Source: Marsupella aquatica (lineage: Eukaryota; Plantae; Marchantiophyta). From it: DNA of 64,000 nt. The stretch covers positions 12,664,359 through 12,728,358 of the forward strand of contig OZ316893.1 of NCBI GenBank assembly GCA_973895155.1, read 5' to 3'. The position numbers and the translations under genes are program-made. Below the pieces are notes generated by a model. That model searched no databases. It was not told the DNA's origin and worked only from the letters and a program-made list of their open reading frames with translations. Below, piece after piece: positions 6,862-54,521 of this stretch (position 1 is the stretch's first letter; each line of letters starts with the position of its first letter).

Positions 6862-7530
6862 TTGGATTTGAGGGACGGGAGGATTAATTTCATGAAAATT
6901 TAAGACAAACAAATGAGGCACAATGTATGGTCTAAAATAATATTTTGGCAGTTGGGGGCAGTATGAACTATTAGGGGGCGCGCAGGCGGTGTGTGATAAA
7001 GTGATTATTCCTAGAAGGGGTTTAAGTATGAAATTGAGAAATTTCCAAACTTTTCAAACCTTACATAGTGCATTATGGGGACGGAAAGATCTTTGAGTAA
7101 CGTCAAGATGGCAAAGACATTGTGGCCGACCCAAATATTAGTGACGTCCCTTGAGTAGGGAGGTCCAGCCTATGACCAAAGAATGGCTTTTGCTTAAAGC
7201 AATATTGGATTTGAGGGACAAGAGTATTTCATGCAAATTTAAGACAAACAAACGAGGCAGAGTGTATGGTCTAAAATAATATTTTGGCAGTTTGGGGCAT
7301 TGTGAACTATCAACTATTGCTAGGGGCAGGAGGTGTGTGATATAGTGGTTATTCCTAGAAGGGGTATAAAGTATTAAATTGAGAAATTTTTTAACTTTTC
7401 AAACCTTACATGGTGTTTAATGAGGACGGCAATATCTTTGGGTAAAGTTAAGATGACAAAGACATTGTGGTCGGCCCAAATATTAGTTATGTTCCTTGAG
7501 TAGGGAGGTCCAGCCTATGACCAAAGAACG
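6862..7530. repeat. Diverged tandem duplication, about 340-bp unit, 2 copies
   Basis: ATTGGATTTGAGGGAC...GAGTAGGGAGGTCCAGCCTATGACCAAAGAA starts at 6862 and at 7204. Confidence 0.85.
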
Positions 7531-7847
7531 GACTTAATTCGCTTAACCCAAGGCGGTCAGGACGGCAAGAAGGTGAAGTCCCCTTTGTAAAGACATCTGA
7601 GTGGGACGCCCACCATTTCTCAGCATAAACGGCCAAGAGAGACCGGGAGGAGCCAAAAGAGGCTTGGATTTTACCTTGCACATATGTAAGCTTCCACAAT
7701 CCTAGTGGATCAATTGTTTGAGTTTTTCTTGTCTACATTGTATTAAGGCCAAAGTAACCTTGGAAGATTACATGAATAGATACAAAAGACTTTTGTTATA
7801 GTTTCATTTATCATAGTGAATTGTTGTCCATGATCCACAAAGAAGGT

Positions 7848-10800
7848 TGTCGCGCCCCTAACCTGGGCCTTAAATCCAGTTTAGTGCCATGGTGCGACCT
7901 CGACCACCAGGAGGGGTGAGGGTTCGGGCAAGGAGGTGTGTAGTGACCTCTATTAGCCCTAAGTCGGGCTAAGTCGATATACTTATTGGTATAACACCTG
8001 CGTAATTCGTACTAGTCATAGGTATATTTGTTTTCCACCGCTGGAATATTCCCTCAGTTAGTGACTCAGACTAACTCCCGGCTTGGGGCCTTTCAAGCCA
8101 TCGACACGACAGGACCTTGCGACACACAATGAGTGGCAATCCCTACCATTACTCCGCACCCGGTACGTCCCTTAAAATGGCGCCTTTGCCCAGACAAAGC
8201 ATACACACAACACCAGTTACTTGCGGAAACATTAGGGGGAAAAGACTACATTTACTCAGCGAAACATCAGTTTACATGGTTGACTCGACTTCAAAGGGGG
8301 TCAGCAGGCCCAATGGCAGTCGATGCCCAGTCTCTACGAGGCCCTGCCTCGCACTTGCCCAGCAAGCTCGACTCTGGCTCTCACTCCTTGGTGCGCCCTG
8401 ACCTTGCTCAGGCCGGGACTCCCCGTGCCTCACCTTTCTTTTGCTGAGATAACTAAGCCCTTTTCCCCCCTTCCATAGCGGAAGGGGAAGCCTAAATACT
8501 ACAACTGCGGAAGGGAACCGGAGGATGCTACCTTTCGGGATACTACCTACTAACTAACTACCTTTTGACTAACGGGCCGTGCCGCACTGACAGATTGACC
8601 ATCGACGACAAGGGTGTCGACCGGAATGGCAGCGGCCAAGCCTACTGACAAATTCTAGTCCGTTGATGGACTCCATCCTACGTTGGCTGATCTTAACTGA
8701 TCCGGCCCTAATTCTTCCTACTGCCGCTAATCGGCGCCTAATGACAGCTATTCTGTCGTTACACCTAACCAAAAGATGCCGCTGTCTTAACCGCCTCGCG
8801 CGGCGCCTGCTTCCACCCTTCGCTAACCACCCCTTATGTGTGTGCTGTGGTTGGACCAGGGCTGGTCCCCTTGTCGGGGCGAGGCCTCGAGCCACCTTGA
8901 TCAGAAGTGGGCCCAGGTTTTCCCCGTTGGAGGACGAGCAGGGTAACGTGGTCCTGCAAAGCCTTGTTGTCCCGTACTGCCTCCTCCACCTCATTTGCAG
9001 CTTCATCGGCCTCGGTCTGGAGCCGCGCTACCTCCAGATTGAGCTGGTTGATGGAGTCGTGATGGATCTGGTCCTGCGCTAGCAATTTATCTCGTTCGAC
9101 GGAGAGACTAGCCACCTGCTGTGCTGCCCGCAAGAATTGTTTGTTGAGGTCGGTCAGGCTGGTAACCCAAGCCGAAGATTCTGAGCGTAATTGAAGCACA
9201 GTGTCATCCAGCTTCTTGAGTTCGGCCTGCGCTCCGCTTAACTCCTGGGTTAGTCCGTCCCTCTATTCGACGGTGCGGACTAACTCTTCGCGGCGGTTAG
9301 TTGCCTCCTCCTTGAGGTGCTCTACCAGCATCTGGAGGCGCCCGATCTCATTCCCCTTCGCCATGAGTTCTTCTTCCAAGCGGCTTACGATCCGTGGTTG
9401 GTGCTCTAACATGAAGAAGGCTGGTTGAAAGTACGTCGAGACCTGTTGTCCGATGTATGTCGCCAGCTCCCTAGACATAGTCTGGCTAAACTTCTGGACC
9501 AGGTCGTAGGCCGTGGTCCCCGGGGCTACTTGGTAGTCCTCCATCCTCTCGGGTACTGGTGGCTCCTCGGGTGGAGCAACGATCTCCTCCGTAGTCAGCG
9601 CTGGGGAGGGGAAGGTATCTTCAGGTGGTGGAGGGATTGGGGGTGGTTGTACTGCGGGTAGTGGAGGCTCAACGGAAGGGGGCGGCAGAATTTCCACGGG
9701 AGGAGGTGGTGGAGTATTAGTCGGGGTTTTCGGCTCGGGGTTTGCCCGAGGGACGGTAGTCCGCGTGCTCGGGGTTGCCTCCTCGGGGGTGGGGGTGACA
9801 TTAGTCGGGGTTGAGGTGGCCATATTCTTTCCTCTGGCCTCCCGCCGTGCCTTGTACCAGGCGAGGATAATGGCGATATGACTTCCCAAGTAAGTCTTCC
9901 CCCCAATAGCCATACCACCCTGAGCCCGCTTCAGCTCCCCCGAGAATCTTCGGTAGAAGAATTGGGCCCAGTTTCGCCGTTTGTACTGTTCCACTTGTAC
10001 GATCGTGCAGAGGGAAATCTCGGATTGCGGCTCAATCATGTGTAGGGTAGTCCGTATGAAGTTAAGTCGCTCCATGCAGGTTAAGTTGGTACACGCTCCC
10101 TGCTTGTATCCATTGTCCGTCTTACCCTCGGGTTTGAAGTGCCGCGGTGTATACTCCTTATCCCAAATTCGGATTTCAATCGGCACCGGCCCGGTTGGTA
10201 GGCAAAAGATTTGCGTTAACCGATGCTCCGTGAGTGATAAGGCCTGCCCCGAAACCTTGGTGGTCGACGCATCAGTGTCAAAATTGGAGATGAACTCACA
10301 AATCTCCTTCGGCGGGGCGGCGCACGGTCTCCATAGCAAGTGAGCGAACTGCTCCAACTGATGCTCCTTAAGATAGTCCGCATGTTCAAGTTTCTTGATC
10401 GCGATCCAGACTACTTCGGGGACGCGGATTACCTGTAACAAGTTGGACTTCGGGTTATCTGGGGGCCGTCGGGTCTGGTTGGTCGGGGGGTTTGCCGGGG
10501 TAGGTGCAGGCGCGGCGTTGGTTCGCGTTGTTGATTCAGGGGCCGTCGTAGTCCTTGGCCGCTTACGAGGACGCTGTTCGAGTTGTGGACTAACTCATTC
10601 GGAACCCGAAGAACAATCTGTGTTGATTACTGGACGGACCTGGGACCGACTCGGCGGTACGCTGGTGGTCATCGGCTGAGGCACTGGTGGTGTCGGGGTA
10701 GCCATATCCCAGTTGAAGGCATTGGAGCTTTCCCCGAGGAACGTAAGATTACGCGTCGCTTCCCGTTGTCTGCTGATGTCTTCTTGGCGCTTTTTGGCTG

Positions 10801-11720
10801 CGATCTGCCGGTCTAGGTACCCTGGAATCTTGTCGAACTCCGCTTGAGTAAGCCGCTGGCTGCCCTTCAGCTTAAAGAACTTTGCTGGGACCTCAAGAAT
10901 CGCTTCTGCTACCGATCTAAGCCCTTCCTCGCTGAGATATAGTTCGGTGATGTAGTCTCACAGCTTGTTGTAGCTGGAATCCCTGGTGATGGCTGTCCTT
11001 TCGCAATTAACCAGTGCTACCTTGGTCACCAGTAAGTCTCGGAGAACTTAGCACCTACCTCGCCAAACAAGGTCCAAAACCCCAAGGCTATGAGGGTCAT
11101 ACTAACCTCGTAGTCCGGTTCATTGAGTCCACGGTCCCACCCGGCTGGTCTTTTTTCCTCGTGGAGGCCTCGATCATCCTGACTAAATCTCACCACATTC
11201 CGCTCTTCTCCCTCGATAGTCTCCTTGTAAAGATTGACTTGATTCGATCAGAAAGGCGAGTGGATGGCAACGTCCGCGAATTCCAAAAAGGTAGATATGA
11301 GCAAATGGCCCGCAGCGCCATCGGCTCCTCTCTTATGGAGGTGCCAGGATGAGCCCAAGCATGAGAAGGCCAGGCCGTTTGGTTATTGATAATGAGCTGA
11401 AGTCGGCGCCTCGGTCCAAGCGTGATTCCTCTAACTGATTTTTACTCCGCTGCCGCCACCGTACCTCGGTCGTGCGTAATAATCCTCTTCCTGAACTCAT
11501 AATTATTCGGTCATCTTAACCTACTCCTAATCTATTCATAATGGCAATAGACGGCTATACGTGCTATTCTACGCTATGGCTACGGTCCTAATGCCCGTAT
11601 AAGACCTAATCTACGATCTGGGTTCGGTTAAGTGACACGTTACCCGTATCACAAAGGTTGTTAGTTTGTCACCTTGATCAGCTCGCCCAACCAAAGGGCC
11701 CAATGTGTAGGCACAACCAC
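7848..11720. mobile_element. GC-rich retroelement-derived fragment with a long accessory ORF (Tat/Ogre-like by architecture)
   Basis: Sharp GC shift and a TGTCGC LTR-like start at 7848. No gag/pol seen and the boundaries are approximate. Confidence 0.4.
8834..10441 (-). pseudogene. Retroelement accessory ORF: N-terminal domain, Pro-rich linker, C-terminal coiled coil, with an internal stop
   Basis: ORFs 9263..10441 and 8834..9199 lie in the same frame, separated by a TAG. A related fragment is at about 24860-25560. Confidence 0.5.
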
Positions 11721-12394
11721 ATCAGCTAACAACTATCATGGCTAGTAGAAGCCACAACTCAAGAGGTCCACATTACTGATTAACAAAAATAAATGAAGAA
11801 TGAATTTGAGTAGTGCAGATCTATCAAACGAGGATCGTCTTGGTAGTAAGCATGTGTGTTTATGAGTGGCAAACTAAATGTGGACTTGGTTGTATTCTAA
11901 CTGTTTCAATACTAACTTGTGCTTGTCTTTGAAACCCACTTTGTTTACCCACTTCGGAATGCATTTATATGCATGCCCATTGCATTATTTACCTTGTGTT
12001 AATATTTCAAAACATATAGCTTAGGTGGCCCCAATTCATGCACATTTTTCCCTGAAAAGTGCCTATCTATGGCAAATTAATAGTAAGATGTGCCCCGGTC
12101 AGTCAGAACTGAATCAACTGCACAACTATTTGGGAGATATATAATATAATAAATGAAGTAGCTGACCGAGTTACAAAATTTACAAATGACTAAACATAGT
12201 CTAACTTCAAGTTCATGTCAATTATATAGGTCAGATTCATTTCTTCTATGGCTATGGAAAATTCAAAGACATTCTGATTAATGAACTAATTTAGTAACCT
12301 AGGTGTCCCTTGTTCATGACGATGTCCGGGTGACCGTGTTTTCTGGCAAGAGCATGTTGGTTCTTTTGAAGTTAACCTTGCATGCTCATAAGTT

Positions 12395-12809
12395 CTACAC
12401 TAAAATCAAAATTATAATTCTAGTAACAAGGGTAGTGGGTATTAAGAAAGGTTCAAGTGAAACTAAAATACTGTTAAACCCTACTTCACCATACTTGCGG
12501 ACCAACACATCACGAAAATTAGTTTTCATACGACATATGATCATAATATCTCCAAGAGAAAATGAAACAGGAATATCATCCAGACTCCTATTCAGATCCA
12601 TGACTTCAATAAAGGACAAAGATGATGCACTCCCACTCCTCTCGGTACGACACCACTGGGTATATTATTGGCTCGTTAGAAACCATAATAGCAGTTGCAA
12701 ACTGAGCTCCAAAATGATAGGTTAGATGTTGCCTCATAGATGGTTTGTCTAAAAGATGGACTCTAATCAAAAACGGATTACGAAGGGGAAGATCAGGGAG
12801 AACAAACAA
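12395..12809 (-). CDS. Tandem pair of small paralogous ORFs (A 12809-12606, B 12601-12395), function unknown
   Basis: Homologous at protein level to the ORF pair in the gypsy LTRs: LPLRNPFLIRVH vs LPLSNPFLIRIH, and PVSFSLGDI is identical. ORF A has no obvious ATG. Confidence 0.6.
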
Positions 12810-12990
12810 TTTAAGAGTTCAATCAAAGGCAAGACAAACAAAGAGTCTAATCCATAGCGAATTAACAGACACATGCAATATACATTAAACCCAAACTAAT
12901 AAAGATAATATAACTAGCAATTATATCTACTTTAAGATTAAAATAAAATGTAATACGTCATATTTTATAAGTTCCCTATAAAAACTTACT

Positions 12991-14838
12991 TCATGTGTGA
13001 CTAGTTCTATTTCTGATAGTCTGGAGTGTTTGGTCCAAGGTATTCAAAGCCCATGACCTTTCTTCTGGCAAATCATTGAAATTTAGTTGTTGATGTACAT
13101 AGGCTGTCAACCCCATAGTTGCACGAGAACTACTTTCACATTCAAGAGAAAGCAGCAAATGCATTCTGAACTTGTCCTCCTTCGATAAGACTCCAATCTG
13201 ATTAGTTTCATATGCAAAATCACGGATATCACGAAGACTCTGCACCAAAAAAAAAGAATTTGGTGAATTGGAAATTAATGAAAAGAATATGCAACCAAAT
13301 AAAATACATTTTTCTTCACTTACCTCATCGTCTAAATCTTTAACACCATGTTCAAAGTTTCCATGATCATCATTATGATTCCAATAATCAGTGCCAATAG
13401 TCTCGATAATATCATCTGCATCTTGAATATCAACTTGACCTTCTTCAGGATATGGTGGAGGTAAAACTATTTTAGATTCTCTCTCTCTTGCTTGAAAAGC
13501 AAGTTGAGGAATGTGTGATGGCCTGTTCACACCTCGTTCTCGCACCGCTCTCACTGTATGGGCATTCCATGTTAGAATGATATCATTTACAGCATTCTGA
13601 ATGAATGGAAGAAGTACAGTAACAATGGAGTATCTATGCAAGGGATTATCCATTTGCAAAAATCCTTCCTCGTATGATAGAGTACGAAATAAGTCCTTAT
13701 AATGACCCAATCCTTGTTTTTTCAAGAATCCCCAAAATGCTTCGATCCTCTGTAAAAATCACAATGATTGTAAAAAATTAGTATGTTCCTTGAAATTCTT
13801 TTTCCTTTTATAAGTTAAAGCCACAAAAACCCTGTGGCAGAGGGGAAACAACCAGGCCATCAAAAAGCCAGCTAAACAACATGACCCCTGGGAGGGCTGG
13901 CATAAAGCATTAACAAGGTACACAGACAACAAATCAGCATCGCGGCCAATGCAACATTGGGCCCCCATAAGTCCCATAGGCAAAAACTTAGTATGTTAAT
14001 AAACATATCAAGCAAATAATTTTGATAACATATAGTTGAGTTTAAGTACTACCTGATTATGAACTGAAGACCCTTTGCAAAAACAATGAGTATTTGGTCT
14101 TGCCCTTTCAAGATTATTTTGGACCATAATATGCTCAGTTGCATAATCAGAACGAATTAATAAAGGATGACCAAATCTTTGAACCGCATTTTTATACCCT
14201 TCATAAATAGTCCGGGCTTTCTTATTTAATGCAACATGCATATACATAACATAATGTGTAGCTCCATCGATAGCTCCATGAATTCTAATTCCATAATTTG
14301 CTAATTTGTCATATGCTGCACAAGAAATTAAACAAAATTAGTACATAATTTCATGATCATGAACAAACTATCTGAATCATATATAGTCAAAAAATGATTG
14401 ATTCAATCTAAATAAAAGGATATAAATACTTGAATTTTACTCACAATCCATATGCCAAATATGCATTGCTTTGGTGACATCGTAAACATGATGTATTAGA
14501 CATCCGCGTGCTCTTGATGCAAGTAATCCTGGAACTAAAACATCCAAGGCATCACGTACAAGCATTCTTGGAACTTTGTATCCAACTCTTTGTAATCCAT
14601 ATATGGGAATAAACTCTAGAATCAATTGCCGAACCTCCTCAAGCGTATATGTTGGATACATTTTCTCTCCATTATTAAATACTTTCAACCATCGCCATAA
14701 AGTAATTCGATCTATTCCAAGTGCTAATGCACATTCCTTCATAGTGTAACCCATGTGAAGTGCTGCCATCACATCTTCACACATTGAATTGATGTTTGTT
14801 GCATCCATATATTTCCCAAATATTCTCCAAAACTCCAA
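12991..14838 (-). CDS. Spliced DDE transposase / integrase-core protein (IS3EU-like rve family) with N-terminal HTH
   Basis: Joining exons at GT-AG introns 14444-14316 and 14052-13750 gives WHMDSYDKLANYGIRIHGAIDGATHY...FGHPLLIRSDYATEH...GSSVHNQRIEAFW...WNAH, the D-D-E motifs of this family. HTH-like ECALALGIDRITLWRWL upstream. A third intron is likely at about 13240-13323. Confidence 0.8.
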
Positions 14839-15183
14839 TGAACTAATACTTTATTTTGCCAGTGTATAATTCCACCTTTTTTAGAACAATTAGAGAACTC
14901 TGTCAGAAAAACAAAGGTCACAAGACAAAAAACCAAGGCTAGTTAGAAAATGTACACTAAGTTGCCATTGCACATACAATAAAATAGGAATATTTTTAGC
15001 AAAAGATACCCTGGATTTACAAAGGATTTGAAAACTATGGAGGGCTCTTTGGTATATTCAATGCCACAATTTAAGCTCTTGAGAGCATCTATTACAAAAA
15101 TAAGCAAAGATACAAATGGGCAAACAAAATCAGTATATAATATTAAAAAAAATTCTGCTCATTATCATGACTATGAATCATGT

Positions 15184-16535
15184 TTATGCATTTTCATTTG
15201 AAAATGTGTAGGCACCACCTAGCTTCTCATTAATTGCAATCCCAACTACGTATACCGGTTCTATAGGGAAACATCTGTATGAGGTGGCGTGCATATCTTT
15301 TCCACGAAGAAAGAAAATATCCCCATCTAATATTGGAATCTTTATTCCATACTCAATAACAACTAGATGTCCACCTCGTTCCTCCATTGAGGGATTTGAT
15401 GCCATGAACATAGTGTATTTACTACAATCATGATCATTATGAACTATATTACAATAGTTCTTTGTAAGAAATAGAGGATATGCTGGTACAGCATGTTTCA
15501 CAACGTTGGGCTTGGAAAAGTGTTGAAGTAATTCTTTGCTTAGATCCATGAAAGGATCTTTGCAATCCAAAAATTCCCTCACTACCGGCCAAAAATAATC
15601 ACAAAATAGTAGGAAAATAATTTCAAATAAGATTCGATGGGAGCATTGCTCATGAATTAACTCCAATTGCAATGCGCTAATTGGAGTTGTATCAGCAATC
15701 TTTAACTTACCCCTGTAGTAACTCACAAAATGTGCTTTTTTTTCTTCTCTCCAATTCACAAGTGGCCCCACAGCTCGCATTGTTTCAATCAATGTTGATC
15801 TCTAATCAGCTCTACGAACAGTCCATTTATGATTGTAGGCATCAATTATTGAATGCCTTAGAAATGGTCGATCGCCCTCTGGAACAACTCCTTTCATTCG
15901 TCCCCCTATTATTTCATTGGTAGACCTATCTTTCCAAATTTCAATAGATGACAAGGGATCCATAACATAAAAGTTACTTGGTATCACCTTCCATACAATA
16001 TGTCGTTATGTTTTCGGTGGGCTAAATCCTCTCTCAATCAAGAAAGCATTTTTATGTTTCACAAGAAACTTAGGGCTTCTCTTCGCAAATGTCTTTACTG
16101 GGATTTTATATTCTTCAAATTTTTCAAAATGATCTGCCTTCCAATTTATATATAAAATTGGATCTTTACGAAACTTTCGGACCCTGGTGGCAATCTCATT
16201 CCCAAGCGAAGATAGATTGTACCGGAAAGTGATCAAGTGGACTATTGTTTTCCACTGATTGGCAATAAAATACTCAGACCAACAACCGGTTTCCCCAAGA
16301 AGTGAAAACCAGAATAAAATTTTGATAACTCTCCCTTCATTTTCCCATCGAAAAAGATGTGCACACCATATTCAAAGAGTAACCAATCACCGAGCAACCA
16401 TTTCAGTAAAAACTGAATATGCAATTTTCCCAACTAAGATGTAAGAGTGATGAGCTCACAGAAATAAATAGCAGCCTTAGGAAGAGGTTGGCTTTTGGTG
16501 ATGTCTGTTGGATTTTGATGATCATTAAATTGAAT
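15184..16535 (-). pseudogene. TET/JBP-like 2OG-Fe(II) dioxygenase, long exon with in-frame stops
   Basis: C-terminal DSBH signature VHND...GGHLVVIEYGIKIPILDGDIFFLRGKDMHAT (HxD...H). A single frame runs from an acceptor near 16535 to 15184 with 5 stops and no frameshift. A basic upstream exon is likely at about 16845-16939. Confidence 0.6.
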
Positions 16536-18096
16536 CTGCACAATAAGATTATTGATCAACATAAAGTGATAAGGAACTTTTACTAATTTAGTATAGTTTA
16601 CTAGTTAATCAATATTTTGCTTGACATCTTGGACCATAGTGATTTCAAATCGAATTCGAAGCATATCAACGCCAGGCACTGAGGATTCCAACAGAAATAA
16701 TCTGAAAGTTTCACCCCCCCCGGAATATCAATTCCTCTTGATTTTACTCACAAAACTATGGTCTCCAAAATATAGCAATATACTGATGATAATGAATATC
16801 TTATAATAGATTGTATACTATTGGCAACAAGGTAAGATTCTTACCATTTCATCAGATTTGGGAGAAGTTTGCCTTTTCTTTCCTCTTCTTTTATTTACTT
16901 TTGCATCATTGTTACTCAATTTTAAGCCTTTCATCGAATCTGCAATGAATGACAATCTATCCTGAATATCAAGTTTTTCATATAATTATTCAAACAAAAA
17001 ATAATACTAACCATTCGCATATCAATCACAGGTACTTATTTGACACATATAATTACTTTATATAGCCTAATCTTTAGGTATGTCTATTTGTTTGTATTAA
17101 CGTATTCCAAACTCCATCAACAAATACAAAATTGAAGTATGCAAATTGCATGCATGCAACAATAGATGAGGCAAAAAGAGAAATGGTCACCTCGTCACCA
17201 CAAATTAGCCAGTTTTCCAAATCCAAAGTTGTCTTCAAAATTGATATCTCTGCACATTCCAAAAAATATATCAAGCTTAAGGTCCCATTGGCCATAATAC
17301 AAAATCTAGTGGATCCAAGTTACTATGAGTCCTCCAAAATATTCTCAATAAAATTTAGAATTTTTCACTCATTTGTCCTTTCCTAATTTGATGGCCTATG
17401 GTTTTAGTCAAAGAGTCTATTGGATAAACTTTAGAGCCAAGAAATATGATCACGAACAGGGGTCAGCAAAGTGGGATCAATGGGATGGAGATGACAATAG
17501 AAGAACCATCTGTCAACTTCATGGGCACTATGATCATATATCTTTCGATCGCAAGCATATCCTTCTGCCTGACATTCCTTCAAACAGTAAAAATGCCACA
17601 TTGTGGGGCATCGAATGCAATGGACAATATCTGTCCAATTCAGGTCATCATGTTCACCACATGCCTTGCATGTATGTAACGGGCAGATAGGGGTGTGTGA
17701 TGGCAGACACACACCGCAAAAAAACCTTACACAAAATCTATCTGAACATTTTTGAACATATTGTGGAGAGTCAAGAGAACCCTCCAAATTCCCCAACTTT
17801 CCACATTGGGCACACTTTGCATGTTTATGTATGCAGTCTTTGCACTTCCACTTCCCATGTTGGCCAGAAGGTGGGGGAAGGCCGACTCCTGGACAATTAT
17901 TCTCTGCTGCATGCAGAGATTGTGCATTGAGATGAAAGTGCCTCAAGCATGGTCCATCACAAATGACTAACTCTCCACCATCGTCACAAATGGCACAACA
18001 ATGGGCTGTTTTTTGGTAGATTTGTTCGCGTGAAAACTTCAAAACATGTGGTCCAAACACAGCTGAATGTCTCACCTCGCCCTTATCTTTTCTACA

Positions 18097-19957
18097 ACAC
18101 AATTTTGGACCGAACGAGAACTATTTCCTCTAAACGAGAAGTGTATTTTCATTTTCTGCCGAATCTCGCGAAATCGGCAGTTTTTTTCATCAAAAACACA
18201 TTTTTGGGGAAATAATGTAATTCGTATCAGAGTTCGGATTGAAACAGCAAATTTAATAATGATCAAAACCAATGAAATTCATACTAACAAACATTCATAT
18301 TATCAAGGAACAATTAGATCCGAAAAAATTTCTCCTCAACCTCATATTCACGCTCTCCGAAGATATATGAAAAGTCTTATCTATAAATCCATATCCACGT
18401 TTCGAGCCAAGTGCGATAACTGTATCGGACTCCGGATTTGAGCCATGAAAGCTCTGACCCAATCTCAGTTTTCTCAGTTTTTGGATATTTACCAAAAATA
18501 TTTTACATCACAGTCGATAAGAATTACTGCACGGTTTGTCAAACTTACCTTGCAGTTACCTCCGCAATTGACCAGTTACCTCCGCAAGTGACCATAGTCA
18601 ACATGCCATTCTTTCAACATCAATGCGCAGTCCAATAAAATTATCGCGAAAACTACGGGCGACAAAAATACTAGTCGACAATACTAAGATCCTTCAGTTC
18701 ATTGGTTAAATTTCAAAATTCCTATCCATATGAAGAAAACTCTTCGCAATACCAACATCAGATAAATTTATCGCTTCAATTTCAAAATTGCAACTTCCAT
18801 ATGAAGGAACCACTTTTGCAATACCAACATCAGATAAATTTATCGCTTCAATTTCAAAATTGCAACTTCCATATGAAGGAACCACTTTTGCAATACTAAC
18901 ATCAGATAAATTTATCGCTTCAATTTCAAATTGCAACTTCCATATGAAGGAACCACTTTTGCAATACCAACATCAGATAAATTTATCGCTTCAATTTCAA
19001 AACTATATAATTTTGCCACGATGCACGTGTGAGAATGAAATTGGAAATCCAAGAAATATACCATTTTCTGTTATTTTGTCGTTTAGGGTGACAGCCAATC
19101 AAAAGTGGACACGTGGGCCAACCCCTCAACAGACACTATAAAAGGGCCACCGCCGATAAGTTTTTTGCACAGGAGGATGCGATAAGTTTATCGCACTCCG
19201 CATTCGAATTGAAAATATGACTTCCTAAGACACATAAGCCCTGAATTCAATCTTTCACAAAAATAACAACTCCGATAAATTTATCAGATTCTCAATTACT
19301 CCTCTTTCCATGAAAGGAATGAAGACTCCGATAAATTTATCGGAATGAAGGCAACACCTCTCTAAACACTGGATCAAATGATTGCAACAGAGGAATGCAG
19401 AATGCGATAAATTTATCGTAGTCCGCTCGAATCTGGACATTTTACACTAAATGACTAGTTAGTCTTACATGGAGAACTTGAACAGGAATGGTTGTTCCGA
19501 TAAATTTATCGGGTTTTCGGTAGAAAGAGTCGAATCGCTTGGGAGGAATGTAAGACTCGATGGGAGTTTGGTATTCGCTCTCAGTCAGGAGATATTTGCT
19601 CTGGCGAAAGCAAACGTTTTATGGGCAGCCCGCTCCTCTTTATATAGGAGACGCTCTAAACCATGGTTAATTTCCTCTTAACCATGGTTAAGTTTCCCCT
19701 TTACCTGGGTTAGTGCATGGTCGTTCCTGGATTACGCGGTTCGGACCAAGTTACTTGCAGTTCGGACTTTTTCACTAACGGAATGTAAAACCCGATGCAC
19801 GTATCGCTCCCTGCATTCCCGCGGCGATGCAATGGAGGAAAGTGGCATTTCGGAGAGTTTTTGCCAATTTTATCGGTCATTGCATTGCCTTAGAAAAAAA
19901 ACAGGATCGGGCTAAATGAGAACTCCGACACACTTCTCGGTCGGTCCAAAATCGTGT
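18097..19957. mobile_element. Non-autonomous TIR DNA transposon, 1.86 kb, superfamily unclear
   Basis: TIR ACAC(A/G)ATTTTGGACCGA(A/C)CGAGAA at both ends. TCTACA is duplicated at 18091-18096 and 19958-19963. Confidence 0.85.
18720..19002. repeat. About 72-bp tandem repeat, about 4 copies, each with the palindrome GATAAATTTATC
   Basis: CAATACCAACATCAGATAAATTTATCGCTTCAATTTCAAA at about 18747, 18819, 18891 and 18962. Confidence 0.9.
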
Positions 19958-20139
19958 TCTACATGGTTGTTTAGGACGAGCCATGCTTACACATTCATAA
20001 ACAAAATTAATTGTAAGAAATCATAAAAAATTAGGATAAACTCAGAACTAACAAATCATCAAAAATACACAATAATACTACTATTCAATGAGCTATTCAA
20101 GATTCATGTACAAATTAGTTGCATACTTCAATCTATATA

Positions 20140-20937
20140 ACAAGTCCAAGTACATGTTGTTCTCTTAGCCATGCAGGTCTCACACAAGATGCTGGTATGA
20201 TAAGAGTCGTGGCTGCCAAATGTCCCTTATTTGAACTACTCATAAACAAAATTAATATTCACTAAGGAAAGCAGGGTTTGAGAGATGGAACGCAAAATTT
20301 CTAGAGCCACATTCCCTTACCAGAATGGGACCAAACTTTGCTTGCACATACCCCAGGTAGTAGACAACGTGTTGGTGAAGTAAGAGCACCAACAAAGCTT
20401 TGGTTGAGAAATGAAAAATCGGAGCCTTTGTGGGGTACTCTTGCCTCCTAAGCAACCTCTGACTTCTCTCCCTTGCCACTATTCAAACCAGCTCTGACTT
20501 GCTAGATCTGCAACCAAGTCCAAGTGCATGTTTTCCTCTTAGCCAGGTCCCTAACAAGATGGTGGTTCATAAGAGTCGTAGCTGTCAAATGTCCCTACTT
20601 TGAAGTACTCAAAAACCTATCGTTCGTTAAGGGAAGGAACATTTAAGAGATGGAAGCAGAGGGCGTGGAATTTTTGGAGCCACATTCCCTGGGCTGAATG
20701 GCACCAAACTTGGCCAGCACGTACCTCAAGAAGTAGACAATGTCCTGGCAAAGTAACAGCATGAACGGAGATTTCAGTGAGAAAATGAAAAATTGGATGC
20801 TCCGAGGCGGTCCTCCTGCCTCCCAAGCCACCTTCGAATCCTCTCCCTTGCCACTACTTCGATCAGCTCGTACTTGCTAGACCTGCAAACAAGTCCAACT
20901 ACATTGTGTTCTATCAGCCACGTCCCTAACAAGATGA
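20140..20937 (-). repeat. About 375-bp satellite, left part (about 2 diverged copies)
   Basis: Reverse complement of the units at 36020-37404; truncated at the inversion breakpoint. Confidence 0.8.
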
Positions 20938-22946
20938 TCTACAGAATATGGATACCACATTTTGCTCACATTGCAGAACCTCTCTATGATCTTCTAAGGA
21001 AGAATGTGAGGTTTGTATGGAGTGCAGGCCATACAAAGGCTATGCAACAATTGAAAGAAGCTTTGACTAGCTCACCGGTGTTACGACCTCTGAAGTACAA
21101 TGGTATTGACCCAATAATTGTGACCATTGACTCAAGTCCTCATGCATCTGGATGGGCAGTTGGGCAAGATGAGGAAGGACAAAGGTTTGCCGCACGGTTT
21201 GGGGCAAAAATATTTACAGAAAGACAGAGGCATTATCCTCAAGTAAAACGAGAGTTGTGGGGTGCGAAGGTAGCACTTCGCCAAGAAAGAGACTATTTGA
21301 TAGGAGCAAATGTAATACTGGAGATAAATTGCCTACCCTTGTTGGGAATGATAGCCAATTGTGATACTCCAGATATTGCAATGCTTCGATGGATAGCATT
21401 CATCAGAATGTTTAACCCTGAGTTAAAGCACATTGCTGGGAGAGATAATCCAGTAGCGGATATGCTTTCCCGAGCTCGCTATAGGGACAAGGAGGACCAA
21501 GGAATGTGCCTTCATAGTACATATGGAGAAGATGAAGGGGAATTGTGGTTTGAAGAGGAAGCTTACTCTGGGGAATTGTTGCAGATAGGACGTTACCTTG
21601 CCACGTTGCAGAAAGATTCAACATGGAGTAAGCAAGATTTCAACAAAATTCGGAAGAAGTCTTACCAATTCATGGTAAGAGATGGATCCCTTTGGAAGCA
21701 TCCAAAGAAGAAGGGGCACATACTTCTAAGGGTCATTGGTAGAGATGAAGAGAAACACAAAATTTTACATGACTTACATGATTCCGACGTGGCAGGACAT
21801 AAGGGGCGAGAAGCTACTTATGAAAGGATTCGAAGACTATATTGGTGGCCAGGAATGTATGTAGATGTAAGCAAGTATGTGGAAACTTGCAAAGTGTGTC
21901 AACTCTACTCAAAGGTGAAGCATTGCGATGGACTAAAACCCACGTACTCTCTTTCCCTACACTACTAATGGGCTGTAGATGTGGTACACATGCCGAGAGG
22001 AGTAAGAGGAGCCAAGTACCTTGTCTTGGCTATTGAGGACCTCTCCTCTTACATTGAAGGAAGAGCCTTGACAACAAATAAGACCGAGGCAATATGCAGA
22101 TTTGTATTGTAGGACATCATTGCAAGGTATGGATGCTTTGATCGCATGAGGGCAGACAGAGGGGAGCTCAATGCAAAGGAAGCGGTTGCATTTTTCAGGA
22201 AGTTTAGGGTGAATCTCAAATTGACAACTGCTTACAATCCTGAAGGTAATGGCAAGAGTGAGAGGGGACACCAACCAATTGTGAATGCCTTGATTAAGGC
22301 ATGCAAGGGAAGAATCTCACTTTGGCCAAATTTCCTTCCCCTAGCACTCATGGCACACAGAACAACTTGCACATCGGTAACAGGATATGCACCTTCAGAG
22401 TTGATCAATGGTCAACTTCCACCCATGCCAATAGAAGAAGACATTAATAGTTGGAGGGCAATAGAGTGGGAGGATGGTGTATCTCAAGAGGATTTGATTC
22501 TTCGTCGCATAGAGCAGTTTGATCACACTCCTACAAAGATCCAAGGCGCCATTAAACAATTGAAGCAAAAGAGAATGGCTAACAAATCTCGCTTTGACAA
22601 GACCCATCGGTTGAGACCCAAGATAATCCAAGAAGAGGATTGGGTCTTAGTTTCTGAAGGCGGTCTCGGACAAAATCACTCCTCGATCAACAAATTTGCA
22701 CAACGTTGGAGAGGCCCATTTGTAGTAGTTACTATTCACCCAAATTCCACTTACACTCTCAGTGAATTGGATGGAGCAATTCATCGTGTGCCTTATGCAG
22801 GAAAAAGAGTGAAAATATTCAAAAGGCGAACACGTTTTTTAGAGGAAGATCCCATCGATTCAGACCAAGAAGAGGAAGAAGAGGAAGAAGAAGAAGAAGA
22901 AGATGAAGAACCTGAAAAGCAAGAGGAAGAAATATTCATTGAGTAA
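20938..22946 (+). pseudogene. Ty3/gypsy pol, 3' half (end of RT, RNase H, integrase)
   Basis: YRIWIPHFA; RNase H IDSS...KRELWG...NPVADMLSR; integrase zinc finger LHD..GHKG..CKVC; core RADRGEL..YNPEGNGKSER; RWRGPF. Internal stops at about 21966 and 22110. Confidence 0.92.
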
Positions 22947-22954
22947 AGTAAGAG

Positions 22955-23070
22955 ATTAGTAGGGGTGACGATTAAGTGTGGTACAGACTACAAGATGCAC
23001 AAAAATTAGTAGGGATGACTATTAAAGTGTGGTGCAGGCCGGAGGCTGCACAGGTTTAGTAGGGGTGATA
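22955..23070 (+). promoter_or_regulatory. Polypurine tract, three similar copies
   Basis: TTAGTAGGG(G/A)TGA at about 22956, 23006 and 23056; the last copy abuts the LTR-start TG. Confidence 0.7.
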
Positions 23071-23154
23071 TGTCGTGAGGATTCTTTGTTTAGTAAGTTC
23101 CTCCTAAGTATAGCTTAGTAGTATAGGATAGTAGTTTAAATTCTCGCGTATGCA

Positions 23155-23600
23155 GTCTATAGTGTGCATGCTACAGTGCACAACCTACAGTGTGCATGCT
23201 ATAGTACACGGTCTACAGTAGGCATGCTATATTGATTCGATCTACAGTGTGCATGCTACAGTGCAAGACCTACAGTGTGCATGCTATAGTGTACGATATA
23301 CAGTGTGCATGCTACAATGTACGATCTACAGTGTGCATGTTACAGTGTACGATCTACAGTATGCATGCTACAATGTACAATCTACAGTGTGCATGCTACA
23401 GTGTACGGTCTACAGTGTGCATGTTACAGTGTACGATCTACAGTATGCATGCTACAGTGTACGATCTACAGTGTGCATGCTACAGTGTACGATCTACAGT
23501 GTACGGTCTATAGTGTGCATATTACAGTGTACGATCTACAGTATACATGCTACAATGTACGATCTACAGTGTGTAAGCTACAGTGTACTGTCTACAGTTG
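23155..23600 (+). repeat. 28-bp (2x14) minisatellite inside the LTR
   Basis: TACAGTGTGCATGC / TACAGTGTACGATC units; mirrored at about 42385-42775. Confidence 0.95.
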
Positions 23601-24253
23601 CTCCACTCACATAACTACAGTACTAGCACACTTACTTGCCTTAGATGTGTGACACATGGCTTCCATCCGTGTGCCATGCTTGATCCGTGTGCTTGAGGTG
23701 TGAGCACTATAAATAAAGAGGAGAGGGGCTCTCTCCCCTCACTCCCCATTTTTCATCAACTAAGTTGTGAAGTCTTAAAAATCTATTGGACTTGATGATC
23801 TCTTCTATGGATATAACCCTTATGAAGTAGACCCACTCATGCACTCTTGCTTAGAGCTTCGGCTCGGCCAAGGATATTTTGTATGAGTCGGACCTTCAGA
23901 AAGTGTTGTCATTTGATAGGAGATGGTTATTAAGTTCTAAAGAGTTGGAAAGTGCTCAACAATGCCTTGACATCATATGCTCCCTTTTGGGTGAAATCCT
24001 TATGAAGTAGACCCACTCATGCACTCTTGCTTAGAGCTTCGGCTCGGCCAGAGATATTTTGTATGAGTTGGACCTTCAGATAGTATTTCATTCAAAAGAA
24101 GATCAACCTATTAAGACAAACATCTGCATGTATATACTTAGAGTTAACTCAATGCATGGTATTTGTTTGAAATGAATGATCTTTTCATTGAATGATTCTA
24201 TATCTTGTCATTAGAATGAAAATTAGTTGGATGGAATATTTGATAGTACGATA

Positions 24254-24671
24254 ATGCCCAGACCAGTACCTATTCTTCCTCTCTCTAATCCTTTCCTTAT
24301 TAGAATTCATGTACTCCAAAAAGAGATAATGCGTCAGCATATGACTTTTCACTTTGGAGAAGCATTTGCAACTGCGGTGTTAAATTCAATAGAGCCAATT
24401 GTATACCCTTATGTAGTTTACGGGTAGGATTGGGTTTGCACAATTTTTATCTTGTATTGAGATGGATCTCAACAAACCTCCATCCGATGAGCCTCCCGTT
24501 TCTTTCTCGTTGGGAGATATTTGTTTTGTAACTTGACCCAAGGTAGCTGCCAAGGAGGCAATAGTCCGTAGGTATGGAGAAAAGGGTTATGATGTTGTGC
24601 TTTCATCCACGGAACCGTTCCTTGTGGTGTCTGCTACCCAGTCTAGAATAGTAATCATGATCTTAACTTAA
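24254..24671 (+). pseudogene. Small ORF pair A and B inside the 3' LTR
   Basis: MPRPVPILPLSNPFLIRIH...ILY* followed by MDLNKPPSDEPPVSFSLGDI...IMILT*, each with one premature stop. Confidence 0.6.
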
Positions 24672-24858
24672 GTTCTCTCTTGACACTAGCAGCCATAGGC
24701 CCGGTGCTTCCTCAAGAACCACATTTTCCCCCCAGACACCGCTGTCTCCTCAAACAATCTACGTCATGCTTGAGTAGCTGGACTGGATCCAAGATAGACT
24801 TGTTCTCTCTTTTTGTCATGCCCATCTCCTCCGCGGCATCCTGGCATGCCTCTTCCAA

Positions 24859-25560
24859 CTATTGGGTGTTGCTCGTCAGTTGTACCACCAGTTGGTCTTG
24901 TTTTGTGGCTTCTTGTAGAAGCTGTGCCACCTCCACCTTCAGGACGTCAACCTCTGATGTATCTCTTTGGACTGGAGTGTCGGCTTTCTTTGCGTCCTTC
25001 TTCCAGATGATAGCTTGTCCCTTCAAGCTATCAATTTGTGTCTGTAGCCGCGCGATCTTTGCATCCTTTCCAGCTCCAGCTTGTGTGGCTAGGGCTGTCT
25101 TGGCTTTAGCTTTGGTGATCTGGGCCAAGGCGGTCGCAAGTTAGGGCTATAGCAGTTGTAGCTTGGCCTCTTGGGCTGAGGCTTCATTTAACAATTGGGT
25201 TGCCCTGATACTGCTCTATCCTCCTTGCGGCTTTAGACTGGGCATGCCCTGCCTTTACTAGCTGCAACCAATTCTTGGTTGAAGAAGTAAGCCACCTTGC
25301 AGGCCATAAACACCCCCATATCTTGACCAGCTTCCACGGAGAAGTTGTCGAGCAACCCATTCAAATATGTCCCCGGACCAAAGTTTCTTGGGTTCACCGG
25401 GTCATGCCTACTAGGGTTTGGGCAAGGGTCTCCCTCTATATGGGTGGGGGTGGGGGCAGATAGATCCAGTTCTGGGGTGACAAGAACAGGGATAGATGGA
25501 TCTGCTGAGGAGGAGGGCTCTATAGGAGCTAGCGTGGGGGATGTTGTCTTAGGGTCAAAG
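24859..25560 (-). pseudogene. Degraded retroelement accessory coiled-coil ORF, related to 8834-10441
   Basis: FSVEAGQDMGVFMACKVAYFFNQ resembles FSQTMSRELATYIGQQVSTYFQP and is followed by a coiled coil. Confidence 0.4.
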
Positions 25561-26399
25561 GCTGGACGTCGTTAAAAGGGATGTCACTTGTATTTGGGTT
25601 GGCCACCTTGTAACTGTCATCTTTATGTCTAAGGTTGTCATGGAAGAGACGCCATTGATGTGACCCTCATAAAAGGACGTCCAGGCTGTCACTTGTTTGC
25701 CCCCTTTTTCTTCTAAGCCATCTTTGAAACTCCATTCAATCTTGGGGATAGCTTGATACCACTTAAGAGGGCCTTATAAATTCTAAATTTAAATTATAGT
25801 ATTTCATACTTTAACTCACTTTAGGAATAATCACCAAATTTTAGTATTCATTGTGGTGATCATGAGACTATAGTTAAGAACGTTTGTCTAACACAAAAAT
25901 TGAGAGCGTGCAACTCACCATCGCAATGAGAATAGTAGCAAAATGGCTACCTTAAATACTCTCTTTTGGTCACATATATAGTGGGCACAATTGCCAGAGG
26001 AGCAGCAGGAGCAGGAGTAGGAGCGCCGACGGCCATCACGCACCCGTCACCAACAGGATCCCCGGAAGGATAAGGGCAAGAAGCCAGCCAAGAAGCCAAC
26101 CAAGAGGAGCCGCAAGAGCCCATTCTAGTTATTTTGTAGAGATACATGCATGAGAGTGACTTGTCATGCCGGAGCTTAGGGTAGGAGAGGCAGCATAGGT
26201 TTAGAAGGGCGGACCTAGCATCAGATATTTCCCCCCTCTTGTCCATGTATAGGGTTCTTTGAAGCCCTATCATTTTGTTCATGCTTTTCCATTTTATAAA
26301 ACAACAATTTTGCCTTCCACATTGGGTTCCAAGGAAAACCCCTTGCAAATAATGTATTGAATCCTGTGTGATCATAATTTTGTGAACCCTTTAAGAACT

Positions 26400-35700: not shown

Positions 35701-36019
35701 ATAATTTAAAACAAAAACACAGACACAAAATCTCAATAGGACAAATTAAGTAACTTCAGTAGGCTCCCAAACAAGGTAGCCATACCCATTGAGATTTCTT
35801 ATATGTGTTTTTATTTCTAGGCTTTCAAGTGTACGTATCAGGAGTGCAATTCATTTCAACCCAACCTGAGGAGGGAGATGAGCCGCCAACAAAATCAGCG
35901 GCCAACATTTGTCACACACTAAAGTTATTGAACCTGATGATACACCCTCAAACTTGGTCGAACACTCCTTTGAATCCTTGCAAGAGAGAAGTCGAAATAG
36001 ACTTGGCAAGCAGCAGAAG

Positions 36020-37404
36020 TCGAAGCTGGTAAGGAGGCAGGAGGACCACCTCGGAGCATCCGATTTTTCATTTCTCACTGAAATCTCCGTTCATGCTGTA
36101 ACTTTACCAGGACATTGTCTACTACTTGAGGTACGTGCTGGCCGAGTTTGGTCCCATTCCGCTTAGGGAATGTGGCTCCAAAAATTCCACGCTCCCTGCT
36201 TCCATCTCTTCAACATTGCTTCCCTTATTGAACGATTGATTTCTGAGTACTTCAAAGCAGTGATGTTCAACAGCTACGACTCCTGTGATATTGTCATCTT
36301 GTTAGGGACATGGCTGAGAGAACACAATGTAGCTAGACTCGTTTGTAGGTCTAGCAAGTACGAGCTAATCAAAGTAGTGGCAAAGGAGAGGATTCGAAGG
36401 TGGCTTGGGAGGCAGGAGGACCACCTGGGAGCATCCGATTTTTCATTTCTCACTGAAATCTCCGTTCATGCTGTTATTTTGCCAGGACATTGTCTACTAC
36501 TTGAGGTACGTGCTGGCCGAGTTTGGTCCCATTCCGCCCAGGGAATGTGGCTCCAGAAATTCCACGCTCCCGACTTCCATCTCTTCAACATTGCTTCCCT
36601 TATTGAACGATTGATTTATGAGTACTTCAAAGTAGTAATGTTCAACAGCTACGACTCCTGTGATACTGTCATCTTGTTAGGGACATGGCTGAGAGAACAC
36701 AATGTAGCTAGACTCGTTTGCAGGTCTAGCAAGTACGAGATGATCGAAGTAGTGGCAAAGGAGAGGATTCGAAGGTGGCCTGGGAGGCAGGAGGACCGCC
36801 TCTGAGCATCCAATTTTTCATTTCTCACTAAAATCTCCATTCATGCTGTAACTTTACCAGGACATTGTCTACTACTTGAGGTACATGCTGGCCGAGTTTG
36901 GTCCCATTCCGCCTAGGGAATGTGGCTCCAGAAATTCCACACTCCCTGCTTCCATCTCTTAAATGTTACTTCCCTTACAGAACGATTGATTTCTGAGTAC
37001 TTCAAAGCAGTGACGTTCAACAGTTGCGACTCTTGTGACACCACCATCTTGTTAGGGAAGTAGCTAAGAGAACACAATGTAGTTGGACTTGTTTGCAGAG
37101 TACAAGCTGATTGAGATAGTGGCAAAGGAGAGGAGTCGAAGGTAGCTTGGGAGGCAGGAGGACCTCCTCGGAGCATCTGATTTTTCATTTCTCACTGAAA
37201 TCTCCGTTCATGCTGTAACTTTGGCAGGACATTGTCTACTACTTGAGGTACGTGCTGGCCGAGTTTGGTCCCATGCCGCCTAGGATTATGGCTCCAGAAA
37301 TTCCACGCTCCCTGTCTATCTCTTCAACATTGCTTCCCTTACTGAACAATTGATTTCTAAGTACTTCAAAGTAGTGATGTTCAATAGCTACGACTCCTGT
37401 GATA
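36020..37404 (+). repeat. About 375-bp satellite, right part (about 3.7 copies)
   Basis: GGAGGCAGGAGGACC at about 36033, 36408, 36783 and 37149. Confidence 0.92.
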
Positions 37405-38766: not shown

Positions 38767-38819
38767 AGACGAGACTAAAGGCTTGGCGTCCTGCCTGCTC
38801 GCTTCTCTTAGCGGGATGC

Positions 38820-39704: not shown

Positions 39705-39944
39705 TGAGCTTCCATGGGAGATTTCTTCTTGACTCTTGCTTGTGGACGCTTTAGGCTCCTCAAATCAAACTCCTTTCTCTTTGGCTTGACGTGTGAAGCG
39801 AGGTCCTGCTTCGGGTCTCTGTTGTTTTTCTCTCCTTTGGGTTTCTTCCATAGAAGTGCCTTCATACCTCCTCTTATCTTCCACAGCGGCATTCCATGCT
39901 GCTCCTACTTCCGCAGTGATAGAGTTGATCAACACAGGCACATC

Positions 39945-41030: not shown

Positions 41031-41224
41031 ACGACTTGCTTCCTCCTTCTTCTGGTTCTCAGGTGCCTCTCTTCATGCTTTGGCCTCCATCAAACTCATA
41101 AACATCTCAGTCATCTCTTTCATAGTTCCTCCTACCATTGTGAACAACTTCTCCTTTGCTTCTATTTTCTATCAAGCTTCTTCTCTCGTCAATATCCTTT
41201 TATCTTTGACACTAGCCTCAAGTT

Positions 41225-53840: not shown

Positions 53841-54521
53841 TCAAAGCCAAGAAATGTGATCTCTCATGGGAGTGTGCAAAGTAGGATCTATGGCATGGCG
53901 ATGACAATAGAAGATCCATCGATCAACACCATGTGCAGAGTGATCATAGATGTGTCTGTCACAAGCATAGCCTTCTGCTTGACGCTCCTTCAAACAATGA
54001 AAGTGCCACATGGTGGGACACCTAACACAGTGGACTATGTCCACCCAGAAATCTTCATCGTGCTGACCACATGCCTTGCACTTATGAAGTGGGCAAGCTG
54101 TGGCAAGATCGGGCAAACATGAAAAACAAAAGAACCTCACACAATATCTGTCAGGGCATTTCCTAACAAGTGGTGGAGCATCAATAGAGCCCTCATAAGA
54201 CCCCAACTTCCCACACTGTGCACACTTAGCCTGCTTCTCCAAACAATCAGTGCACATCCAGCCTCCTTGGTGTGCTGACGGGAGGCCCACCCCTGGACAG
54301 TTGTTTTCTGCAGCAAGGTCAGACTCCGGGTTGAGGTGGAAATGCCTCATGCAAGGGCCCTCACATATGGCTAAGTCACCACCATCGTCACAAATGGCAC
54401 AACAATGAGCCGCCTTCTGGAAAATCTGACTTGCGGAGAAGTTACTACCATCTGGCCCAACTACACCTGTGTTGCTCACCTCTGTCCCCCGCTTCTTGGC
54501 TCGGATTTTAGGGCGTGCCAT
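53841..54521 (-). CDS. Stand-alone EDM2-like PHD-finger cassette (CACTA cargo), intact
   Basis: CAICDDGGDLAICEGPCMRHFH...CPLHKC...CVRCPTMWH...YCHRHAIDPTLHTPMRDH with an N-terminal basic NLS-like tract. Confidence 0.88.
   Translation of the reverse strand: MARPKIRAKKRGTEVSNTGVVGPDGSNFSASQIFQKAAHCCAICDDGGDLAICEGPCMRHFHLNPESDLAAENNCPGVGLPSAHQGGWMCTDCLEKQAKCAQCGKLGSYEGSIDAPPLVRKCPDRYCVRFFCFSCLPDLATACPLHKCKACGQHDEDFWVDIVHCVRCPTMWHFHCLKERQAEGYACDRHIYDHSAHGVDRWIFYCHRHAIDPTLHTPMRDHISWL

Follow-up and report, generated by a model that had tools for sequence, protein, structure and literature searches.

A 64,000-nt stretch of the genome of the liverwort Marsupella aquatica (GenBank assembly GCA_973895155.1, contig OZ316893.1, positions 12,664,359 to 12,728,358; here called the window) carries on its minus strand genes for a plant homeodomain (PHD) protein, a TET-like dioxygenase and an integrase-like transposase. 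On balance, this cluster is probably a decayed, low-copy cut-and-paste transposon of the IS3EU/GingerRoot group from a bryophyte-type plant, with two passenger genes upstream of the transposase gene, for a predicted TET/JBP-fold Fe(II) dioxygenase and a predicted NSD-type PHD histone reader. The three genes are real, and the locus is likely a decayed copy of a DNA transposon. A preliminary description of the window had reported four minus-strand units, namely a PHD cassette, a dioxygenase with an HxD...H motif, a spliced transposase and a pair of small open reading frames (ORFs). All four are present where it had placed them, with details corrected here, and profile and structure searches supported the identities of the transposase, the dioxygenase and the PHD protein. 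Both passenger genes are broken in the window: the dioxygenase gene has three stops and one frameshift, and the PHD gene contains an insertion. The features of the cluster are as follows.

12991..13239, minus strand: transposase exon 4 and stop
13324..13749, minus strand: transposase exon 3, with the catalytic Glu
14053..14315, minus strand: transposase exon 2, with the second catalytic Asp
14445..14808, minus strand: transposase exon 1, with a helix-turn-helix (HTH) region and the first catalytic Asp
15184..16535, minus strand: main exon of the TET/JBP-fold dioxygenase gene, a pseudogene here
16845..16934, minus strand: predicted exon A of the TET-like gene
17431..18090, minus strand: remainder of the PHD gene, with the NSD-type PHD cassette (228 aa minus the insertion)
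18097..19957, no strand assigned: non-autonomous, high-copy terminal inverted repeat (TIR) element of 1861 bp, resembling a miniature inverted-repeat transposable element, which splits the PHD gene after nine codons
19958..19984, minus strand: first nine codons of the PHD gene, including one copy of the duplicated target site

The transposase gene

The four exons of the transposase gene (14808-14445, 14315-14053, 13749-13324 and 13239-12991) are separated by three introns, all GT..AG, and join into an open 433-aa frame with the catalytic residues D121, D178 and E212. Pfam family rva_4 (PF24764) was matched above cut-off on exons 2 and 3 (E 1e-16 and 3e-8, respectively), and the HTH matches of exon 1 were weak. 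The position of intron 3 is marked by a gap in the alignment with the Calypogeia protein P0040. Two proteins of the liverwort Calypogeia fissa, the only named relative found for any gene of the cluster, are 59% identical to the transposase over 317 aa, and in the GingerRoot DDE core printed in PMC6839031 we counted by eye 50 identities in 96 residues (~52%). The protein thus combines the two features expected of IS3EU/GingerRoot, an integrase-like DDE domain (rva_4) and an N-terminal HTH region, and, judged by sequence, it is an IS3EU/GingerRoot DDE protein. The splice model and PF24764 bear out the earlier assignment to a spliced, rve-type, IS3EU-like transposase. The window lacks an in-frame stretch of ~36-39 nt at 14597, in exon 1, that is present in contigs of the sequencing runs X1, X3 and X6, so this transposase copy may also be impaired.

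The TET-like dioxygenase gene

In the window, the main exon of the dioxygenase gene is interrupted by stops at 16436-16434, 16008-16006 and 15804-15802 and by a frameshift near 16290-16340. Exon A, read from the sequence alone, has 30 codons, a basic stretch resembling a nuclear localisation signal and a GT donor. The window's own dioxygenase pieces gave no relevant Pfam match. Across 384 aa they are 55% identical to P0001, an intact relative of 479 aa, and a search with P0001 at E <=0.001 returned relatives that fall, at 50% identity, into at least 27 clusters. Among the relatives, complete open frames of 427-479 aa occurred at identities as low as 26%.

When 21 relatives from the P0001 search were aligned with the window frame (22 members), the HxD...H iron triad was invariant among the sequences covering it (His395 20/20, Asp397 20/20, His445 16/16), and it is present in the window copy. 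Asp399, an acidic residue just past HxD, was likewise invariant (20/20), and together the triad and Asp399 argue for catalysis. Arg271 and Arg275 are conserved as well. Pfam matches in the family, to PF20515 (5/22 members) and PF12851 (2/22), were all below cut-off. The top PDB sequence match of the family profile was CMD1 (E 0.021, over a 61-column profile alignment), to which the dioxygenase is just 13% identical.

A structure model was made of P0001, not of the window copy; its mean predicted local distance difference test (pLDDT) score was 64, with mostly 70-90 in the catalytic part. In a Foldseek search with this model, CcTet, CMD1 and NgTET1 were the only structures among the rows listed to rank 20 (E 1e-7 to 4e-5). 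With VIA-align, against 48,161 chains, CMD1 ranked first (Z 14.3, 257 residues aligned, root mean square deviation 4.4), and TET2 (Z 14.2, 246, 4.7) and NgTET1 (Z 13.6, 211, 3.8) also scored above prolyl hydroxylase (Z 12.9) and AlkB (Z 12.4), the alignments of which were shorter than those of the TETs. The model has the double-stranded beta-helix fold with a TET-type N-terminal extension that characterises TET/JBP enzymes. As TET structures rank first and have the longest alignments, a TET/JBP fold is well supported for the modelled family, and the earlier claims of an HxD...H motif and a TET/JBP-like dioxygenase are both upheld.

DNA of the 5-methylcytosine (5mC) type is likely to be the substrate, as predicted from these resemblances. 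The invariant Asp lies mostly four residues past the first His, and the base-reading Asp350 of CMD1 five past, when the two are compared by sequence. The arginine that canonical TETs use to bind the C5 carboxylate of 2-oxoglutarate (2OG), Arg1896 in TET2 and Arg289 in NgTET1, has no counterpart in the family: no Arg was found at positions 455-465, the strand past the distal His, in the 16-17 covering sequences, the equivalence of that strand to the 2OG-Arg site being judged from motif spacing alone. An Arg five residues past the distal His is present in 12/17 sequences. With the 2OG arginine missing, the co-substrate and product of the family may differ from those of canonical TETs.

The PHD gene and its insertion

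The PHD gene starts with the ATG at 19984, as the end coordinate of the preliminary description had implied, and removal of the insertion and one copy of the target restores an open 228-aa frame. The insertion has TIRs of at least 25 bp at 92% identity and a 72-bp internal tandem repeat at 18709-19002. The simplest reading of its target site duplication (TSD) is 6 bp (18091-18096 and 19958-19963), and readings of 4 bp and 2 bp fit too. The empty-site joint (18089>19957) was found in 4/4 public runs examined, and in run X3 the insertion has a depth of 3,700-5,800 vs ~130-390 in the core of the cluster. It also contains many copies of a palindromic motif, and its CpG is not depleted (observed/expected 1.15).

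Matches of the PHD protein to Pfam (PF23011, PF23004 and PF22908) were all below cut-off, and the profile of its alignment matches the PHD region of NSD2 and NSD3 (E 1e-10 to 1e-8). Judged from these profile matches, approximately 2.5 atypical, NSD-like PHD fingers are present, the arrangement of EDM2. The structure model (mean pLDDT 51) was too poor for ligand prediction, and the fold search returned weak NSD3 PHD5-C5HCH rows (E >=0.015). The earlier label 'EDM2-like' fits the fingers, since EDM2's are reported to resemble those of NSD1 (PMC7529245 and PMC3776765, in the parts consulted). It does not extend to the rest of EDM2: the PGR and ELP domains that follow the fingers there were not found, both PHD ORFs in the window ending right after the cassette. 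Nor is the cassette specific to this element. In a search limited to relatives of 116-370 aa, seven of 20 candidates were standalone proteins of 213-278 aa, and the gene may have further coding exons upstream. The PHD alignment found no related locus in viral contigs, and a single 25-residue match (L001) in metagenome contigs.

Evidence for one mobile unit

The transposase, dioxygenase and PHD genes are co-oriented, with spacers of ~375 and ~500 bp, and we consider it quite likely that they form one mobile unit. Six of the eight pieces listed for run X3 are 98-99% identical to the window at a depth of 126-144 and lie between 11838 and the PHD 5' end, spanning the 3' flank, the transposase, the end of the dioxygenase, a spacer and the PHD gene. 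The other two are 10-12% diverged, have a depth of 27-28 and include a diverged dioxygenase copy. The even X3 depth across the three genes and their spacers suggests co-amplification. If ~28 is the single-copy depth, as variant joints at 30-50 led us to assume, X3 would hold approximately five copies of the three-gene unit without the TIR insertion, although contig depth is no copy number, which counts against this estimate. In run X6, contigs that are 4-6% diverged cover all three genes at a depth of 4-7; the lack of X6 cover at 11701-12302 and 12905-13205 is uninformative at a depth of ~5.

Contigs of X1, X3 and X6 connect spacer with coding sequence. An X1 contig that contains the dioxygenase 3' end stops no more than 55 nt short of the transposase start. 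From transposase exon 1, an X6 contig comes as close as 77 nt to the dioxygenase stop, and an X3 contig with the PHD 3' end leaves at most 118 nt to the predicted start of the dioxygenase. The GC content of the three-gene stretch is 0.33-0.39 vs 0.43 for the whole window.

Both sides of the unit are disturbed. Its 3' side abuts a 3.8-kb TG..CA element, and its 5' side is cut by an inversion, so any 5' end would have moved to the far side, towards 35991. Termini were sought with a repeat finder, sensitive blastn and TA/TG-anchored scans for TIRs with TSDs, in the standard and the inversion-corrected orientation. No terminus of the IS3EU/GingerRoot type, TA..TA or rarely TG..CA with TIRs of ~30-150 bp, was found in the window. 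The end motif of rust IS3EU elements has 19 matches vs 6.3 expected, with no TIR pair among them, and three belong to the internal repeat of the PHD gene insertion. The claim of one large element therefore stands in part: depth and spacers favour copying of the genes together, and no termini, no TSD and, among the contigs listed, none with two of the genes were found.

Second PHD copy and surrounding repeats

Repeats are abundant in the window, among them Gypsy, CACTA and long terminal repeat (LTR)-type sequence, and many insertions are nested. The features discussed in this section are listed below.

7848..11653, minus strand: high-copy TG..CA element of 3.8 kb with a 5-bp TSD, which may belong to the 3' part of the unit or lie immediately past it
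11705..12302 (limits approximate), no strand assigned: downstream sequence at three-gene depth (X3 contigs, 128-162), likely inside the copied unit
12303..12803 (limits approximate), minus strand: high-copy Gypsy-LTR-related repeat with the small ORF pair (12395-12664 and ~12609-12725)
20139..20937, plus strand: left breakpoint of the inversion, with 375-bp repeat units of Gypsy origin (X3 depth 207 at 20129-20400)
53841..54521, minus strand: second PHD ORF, intact-looking and in one family with the first, with BRCT and CACTA (Tnp2) genes downstream of it

The second PHD ORF, 36 kb from the first, shares 74% aa identity with it over 191 codons, and the N-terminus of the first gene resembles that of the second. 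The nonsynonymous divergence (dN) is 0.18 and the synonymous divergence (dS) ~2.0, which is near saturation (dN/dS ~0.09), and this contrast points to purifying selection between the paralogues. As the second copy lies in a CACTA cluster, the PHD gene looks like cargo shared between transposon superfamilies. That cluster (46110-55670, minus strand) contains Transposase_21, DUF4218 and weak Transposase_24 matches. Ahead of these, in the same orientation, come four passenger ORFs: one that matches no Pfam family (51682-52257), a twin-BRCT ORF (52392-53255), the second PHD ORF and a Cys-rich one of 159 aa (55191-55670). The cluster resembles a CACTA element with two kinds of chromatin/DNA-damage reader; its ends were not found.

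The small ORF pair, put forward earlier as a fourth unit of the DNA transposon, derives instead from a Gypsy LTR. The ORFs gave no Pfam match, and a frame within both neighbouring Gypsy LTRs matches them at 46-47% identity (E 1e-17 to 1e-18). The repeat that contains them shares 66% nucleotide identity over 198 bp with the LTR arms and has an X3 depth of 5,700-9,500. Given the identity to the LTR frame and the very high depth, we rejected a dedicated DNA-transposon gene. The short LTR frame, at 24329-24665 and 41319-41655, is conserved as protein (46-47%) with the diverged repeat at 12395-12737.

One Gypsy element (20139-24738 and 35992-42857), with LTRs that are 93-96% identical, has been split by an inversion of ~16 kb, both breakpoints of which lie in 375-bp repeats derived from the reverse transcriptase/RNase H region. 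The inversion had been mentioned in the preliminary description and is backed by a 4-bp target duplication that the two LTRs (23071-24738, plus strand; 41246-42857, minus strand) share at their outer flanks. Both LTRs contain tandem arrays of a 28-bp repeat with 14-bp subunits (23156-23598 and 42426-42773). A 345-bp tandem duplication at 6861-7528 has a diverged relative on the other strand at 25553-25834, 18 kb off. The inverted match between 7001-7177 and 25553-25834 was considered as a TIR pair and rejected: the Gypsy target duplication places the right copy within the inverted segment, so the pair was originally direct. The element at 7848-11653 has a long, stop-interrupted minus-strand frame with a coiled-coil end and no informative Pfam match, and is possibly a solo LTR or a non-autonomous element.

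Proposed role and alternative explanations

Intact elements of this kind would transpose by cut-and-paste. Their dioxygenase would most likely flip out and oxidise 5mC on the element's own DNA; by analogy with fungal TET-carrying transposons, for which this function is itself only proposed, host methylation maintenance and methyl readers would then fail and the transposase gene would stay transcribable. We give this anti-silencing role slightly less than an even chance. In heterochromatin, H3 tails would be the likely target of the PHD protein, which would act there as a recruiter or a decoy; it may recruit the enzyme, shield chromatin or guide insertion. Functional coupling of the PHD protein to the dioxygenase is doubtful. 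As CACTA sequence in the window carries a PHD gene too, the PHD protein looks more like a general transposon passenger than a dedicated partner. A bolder version, in which the PHD reader shared by GingerRoot and CACTA finds H3K9-methylated chromatin and the arginine-less TET converts 5mC to a non-canonical base, either like 5-glycerylmethylcytosine (5gmC) or new and perhaps made with ascorbate, is improbable.

Several observations weigh against a single anti-silencing transposon, and many of them would suit a chance pile-up, in which the transposase, dioxygenase and PHD genes have separate origins, possibly in other transposons for the dioxygenase and PHD genes, and were later duplicated as a segment or inherited as one locus. 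The window is full of nested insertions, and neither a TIR pair nor a 6-bp TSD was found in it in either orientation; the best TSD-flanked pairs match at 13-14/20 bases, and their number (2 observed vs 0-1 in 10 shuffles) is not above chance. None of the contigs listed holds two of the coding regions. The even X3 depth continues into Gypsy-derived sequence on both sides, taking in the LTR-derived repeat as well as the Gypsy-derived units, and could reflect one orthologous locus or a segmental duplication. Over the 5' half of the PHD gene the depth is ~1,580, several times that of the core. The PHD family also occurs in the CACTA cluster, and a diverged X3 contig (1,385 nt, depth 27.9) fits the window solely at 17262-17615, so at least one PHD copy has a different downstream neighbour and is without this dioxygenase within ~1 kb downstream. 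A pile-up would not, however, account readily for the shared strand, short spacers and similarly low GC, for spacers conserved in contigs that are 4-6% diverged or for the existence of a dioxygenase copy that is 10-12% diverged, and a TET gene upstream of an IS3EU transposase gene has been published for rust fungi. We regard separate arrival as unlikely.

The other points against the anti-silencing transposon concern what the passengers do. The mean pLDDT of the P0001 model is 64, the TET structures lead prolyl hydroxylase and AlkB by only ~1.5-2 Z units, and no Arg is found at the expected strand. CpG is depleted in the three genes (observed/expected 0.34-0.51), which implies that they have spent time methylated and did not stay methylation-free. 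The genes could belong to one transposon and yet be no anti-silencing kit, with the dioxygenase acting on RNA, thymine, N6-methyladenine (6mA) or protein or serving as a non-catalytic DNA binder, and the PHD protein directing new insertions to heterochromatin, the part that chromodomains play for Gypsy integrases. 6mA is a known further substrate of CcTet, GingerRoots favour gene-poor regions and have no chromodomain, and the PHD cassette is common to the CACTA sequence. Against this, the iron triad and Asp399 are invariant and the closest folds are all 5mC enzymes, among them CMD1, which is active on 5mC without that arginine and uses vitamin C. By eye, the arginine is missing from several rust PU-type TETs too. 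We consider this explanation rather improbable, and passive Pack-type capture of the dioxygenase and PHD genes as functionless host gene fragments scarcely credible. Such fragments are carried by 28.6% of Selaginella GingerRoots, and both passengers are broken in the window copy; but the PHD paralogues have a dN/dS of ~0.09, standalone ORFs of 213-278 aa turn up repeatedly in their family, complete open frames related to the dioxygenase (427-479 aa) are found at identities as low as 26%, and the fragments described in the consulted part of PMC6839031 are never whole genes.

Significance

Neither passenger gene of the window copy is still functional. The dioxygenase belongs to a divergent TET-fold family of at least 27 clusters, and the position of this one member next to a bryophyte-type GingerRoot transposase would extend TET-armed transposons to land plants. 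Intact relatives may erase or disguise host silencing marks. Open frames such as P0001 are material for direct enzyme assay. The recognition of heterochromatin by plant transposons might be approached through the standalone PHD reader, which occurs next to genes of two DNA-transposon superfamilies, and if a novel base were indeed made, land plants would hold an undescribed, transposon-written DNA modification.

Comparison with known systems

The published systems are compared here from the consulted parts of the cited papers. For plants, the preliminary description had regarded the combination as unreported. Plant IS3EU elements have been published as GingerRoot, from Selaginella and bryophytes (Cerbin et al. 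2019, PMC6839031), and IS3EU and GingerRoot are one lineage (99% bootstrap, PMC10045372). TET-carrying IS3EU transposons are also known, from rust fungi (PU-type TET) and Tuber indicum (Kojima 2025, PMC12730594), so the pairing of TET with IS3EU is new only for plants. The literature search, the coverage of which stopped short of key Aravind-group papers and of the supplements of PMC6839031 and the bioRxiv Chlamydomonas paper, returned neither a TET gene in a transposon of land plants nor a cargo that combines TET with PHD. Within the literature searched, the TET-carrying transposon arrangement was found in print solely for fungi and green algae. Iyer 2009 and Iyer 2014 may mention TET/JBP genes in a moss.

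The rust and Tuber elements share with the window an IS3EU transposase with a TET/JBP passenger, and in three rust families the TET gene lies upstream of the transposase gene in the same orientation (PMC12730594). The resemblance to the rust PU type, by eye, includes the motifs around HxD and the last strand, and the dioxygenase family matches PF20515 weakly. These elements differ in being fungal, in having as third gene an alpha-kinase in the opposite orientation, with 'PHD' at zero occurrences in PMC12730594, and in their defined termini (TAYGG..CCRTA with a 6-bp TSD), of which none was found in the window. Kojima proposes anti-silencing for the fungal elements and states that experimental validation is lacking (PMC12730594).

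GingerRoots, in plants reported solely from bryophytes and lycophytes, resemble the element in their integrase-like DDE domain (~52% by eye over the core), non-seed-plant host range, size range and extra genic sequence. They are 3.9-12.9 kb long and contain pieces of genes, lie preferentially where genes are sparse and lack a chromodomain (PMC6839031). Their described cargo consists of host gene fragments, in contrast to whole TET or PHD genes (PMC6839031). In Chlamydomonas, CMD1 occurs in DNA-1_cRei, and there are TET-carrying Helitrons (PMC7854593; bioRxiv 10.1101/2022.06.16.496473). CMD1 enzymes are characterised by a vitamin C pocket, a blocking Trp358 and a 5gmC product. DNA-1_cRei is likewise a green-lineage transposon, its TET-fold enzyme works without the canonical 2OG arginine, and CMD1 is both the top sequence match of the dioxygenase and tied for best fold match; unlike the element described here, DNA-1_cRei has 8-bp TSDs and no recognisable transposase, and the identity to CMD1 is low. 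The window PHD protein shares NSD-type atypical fingers with EDM2 and NSD1-3 and differs in being standalone (~228 aa), without ELP, PGR or SET domains, and transposon-associated.

VANC, from the VANDAL Mutator-like elements, is a sequence-specific DNA binder and not an oxidase. Plants themselves remove 5mC with ROS1/DME glycosylases (PMC11065753). VANC belongs to another superfamily and is unrelated as a protein; as a plant transposon gene that counters silencing, it would be the functional analogue if the anti-silencing role holds (PMC6446971, PMC12730594).

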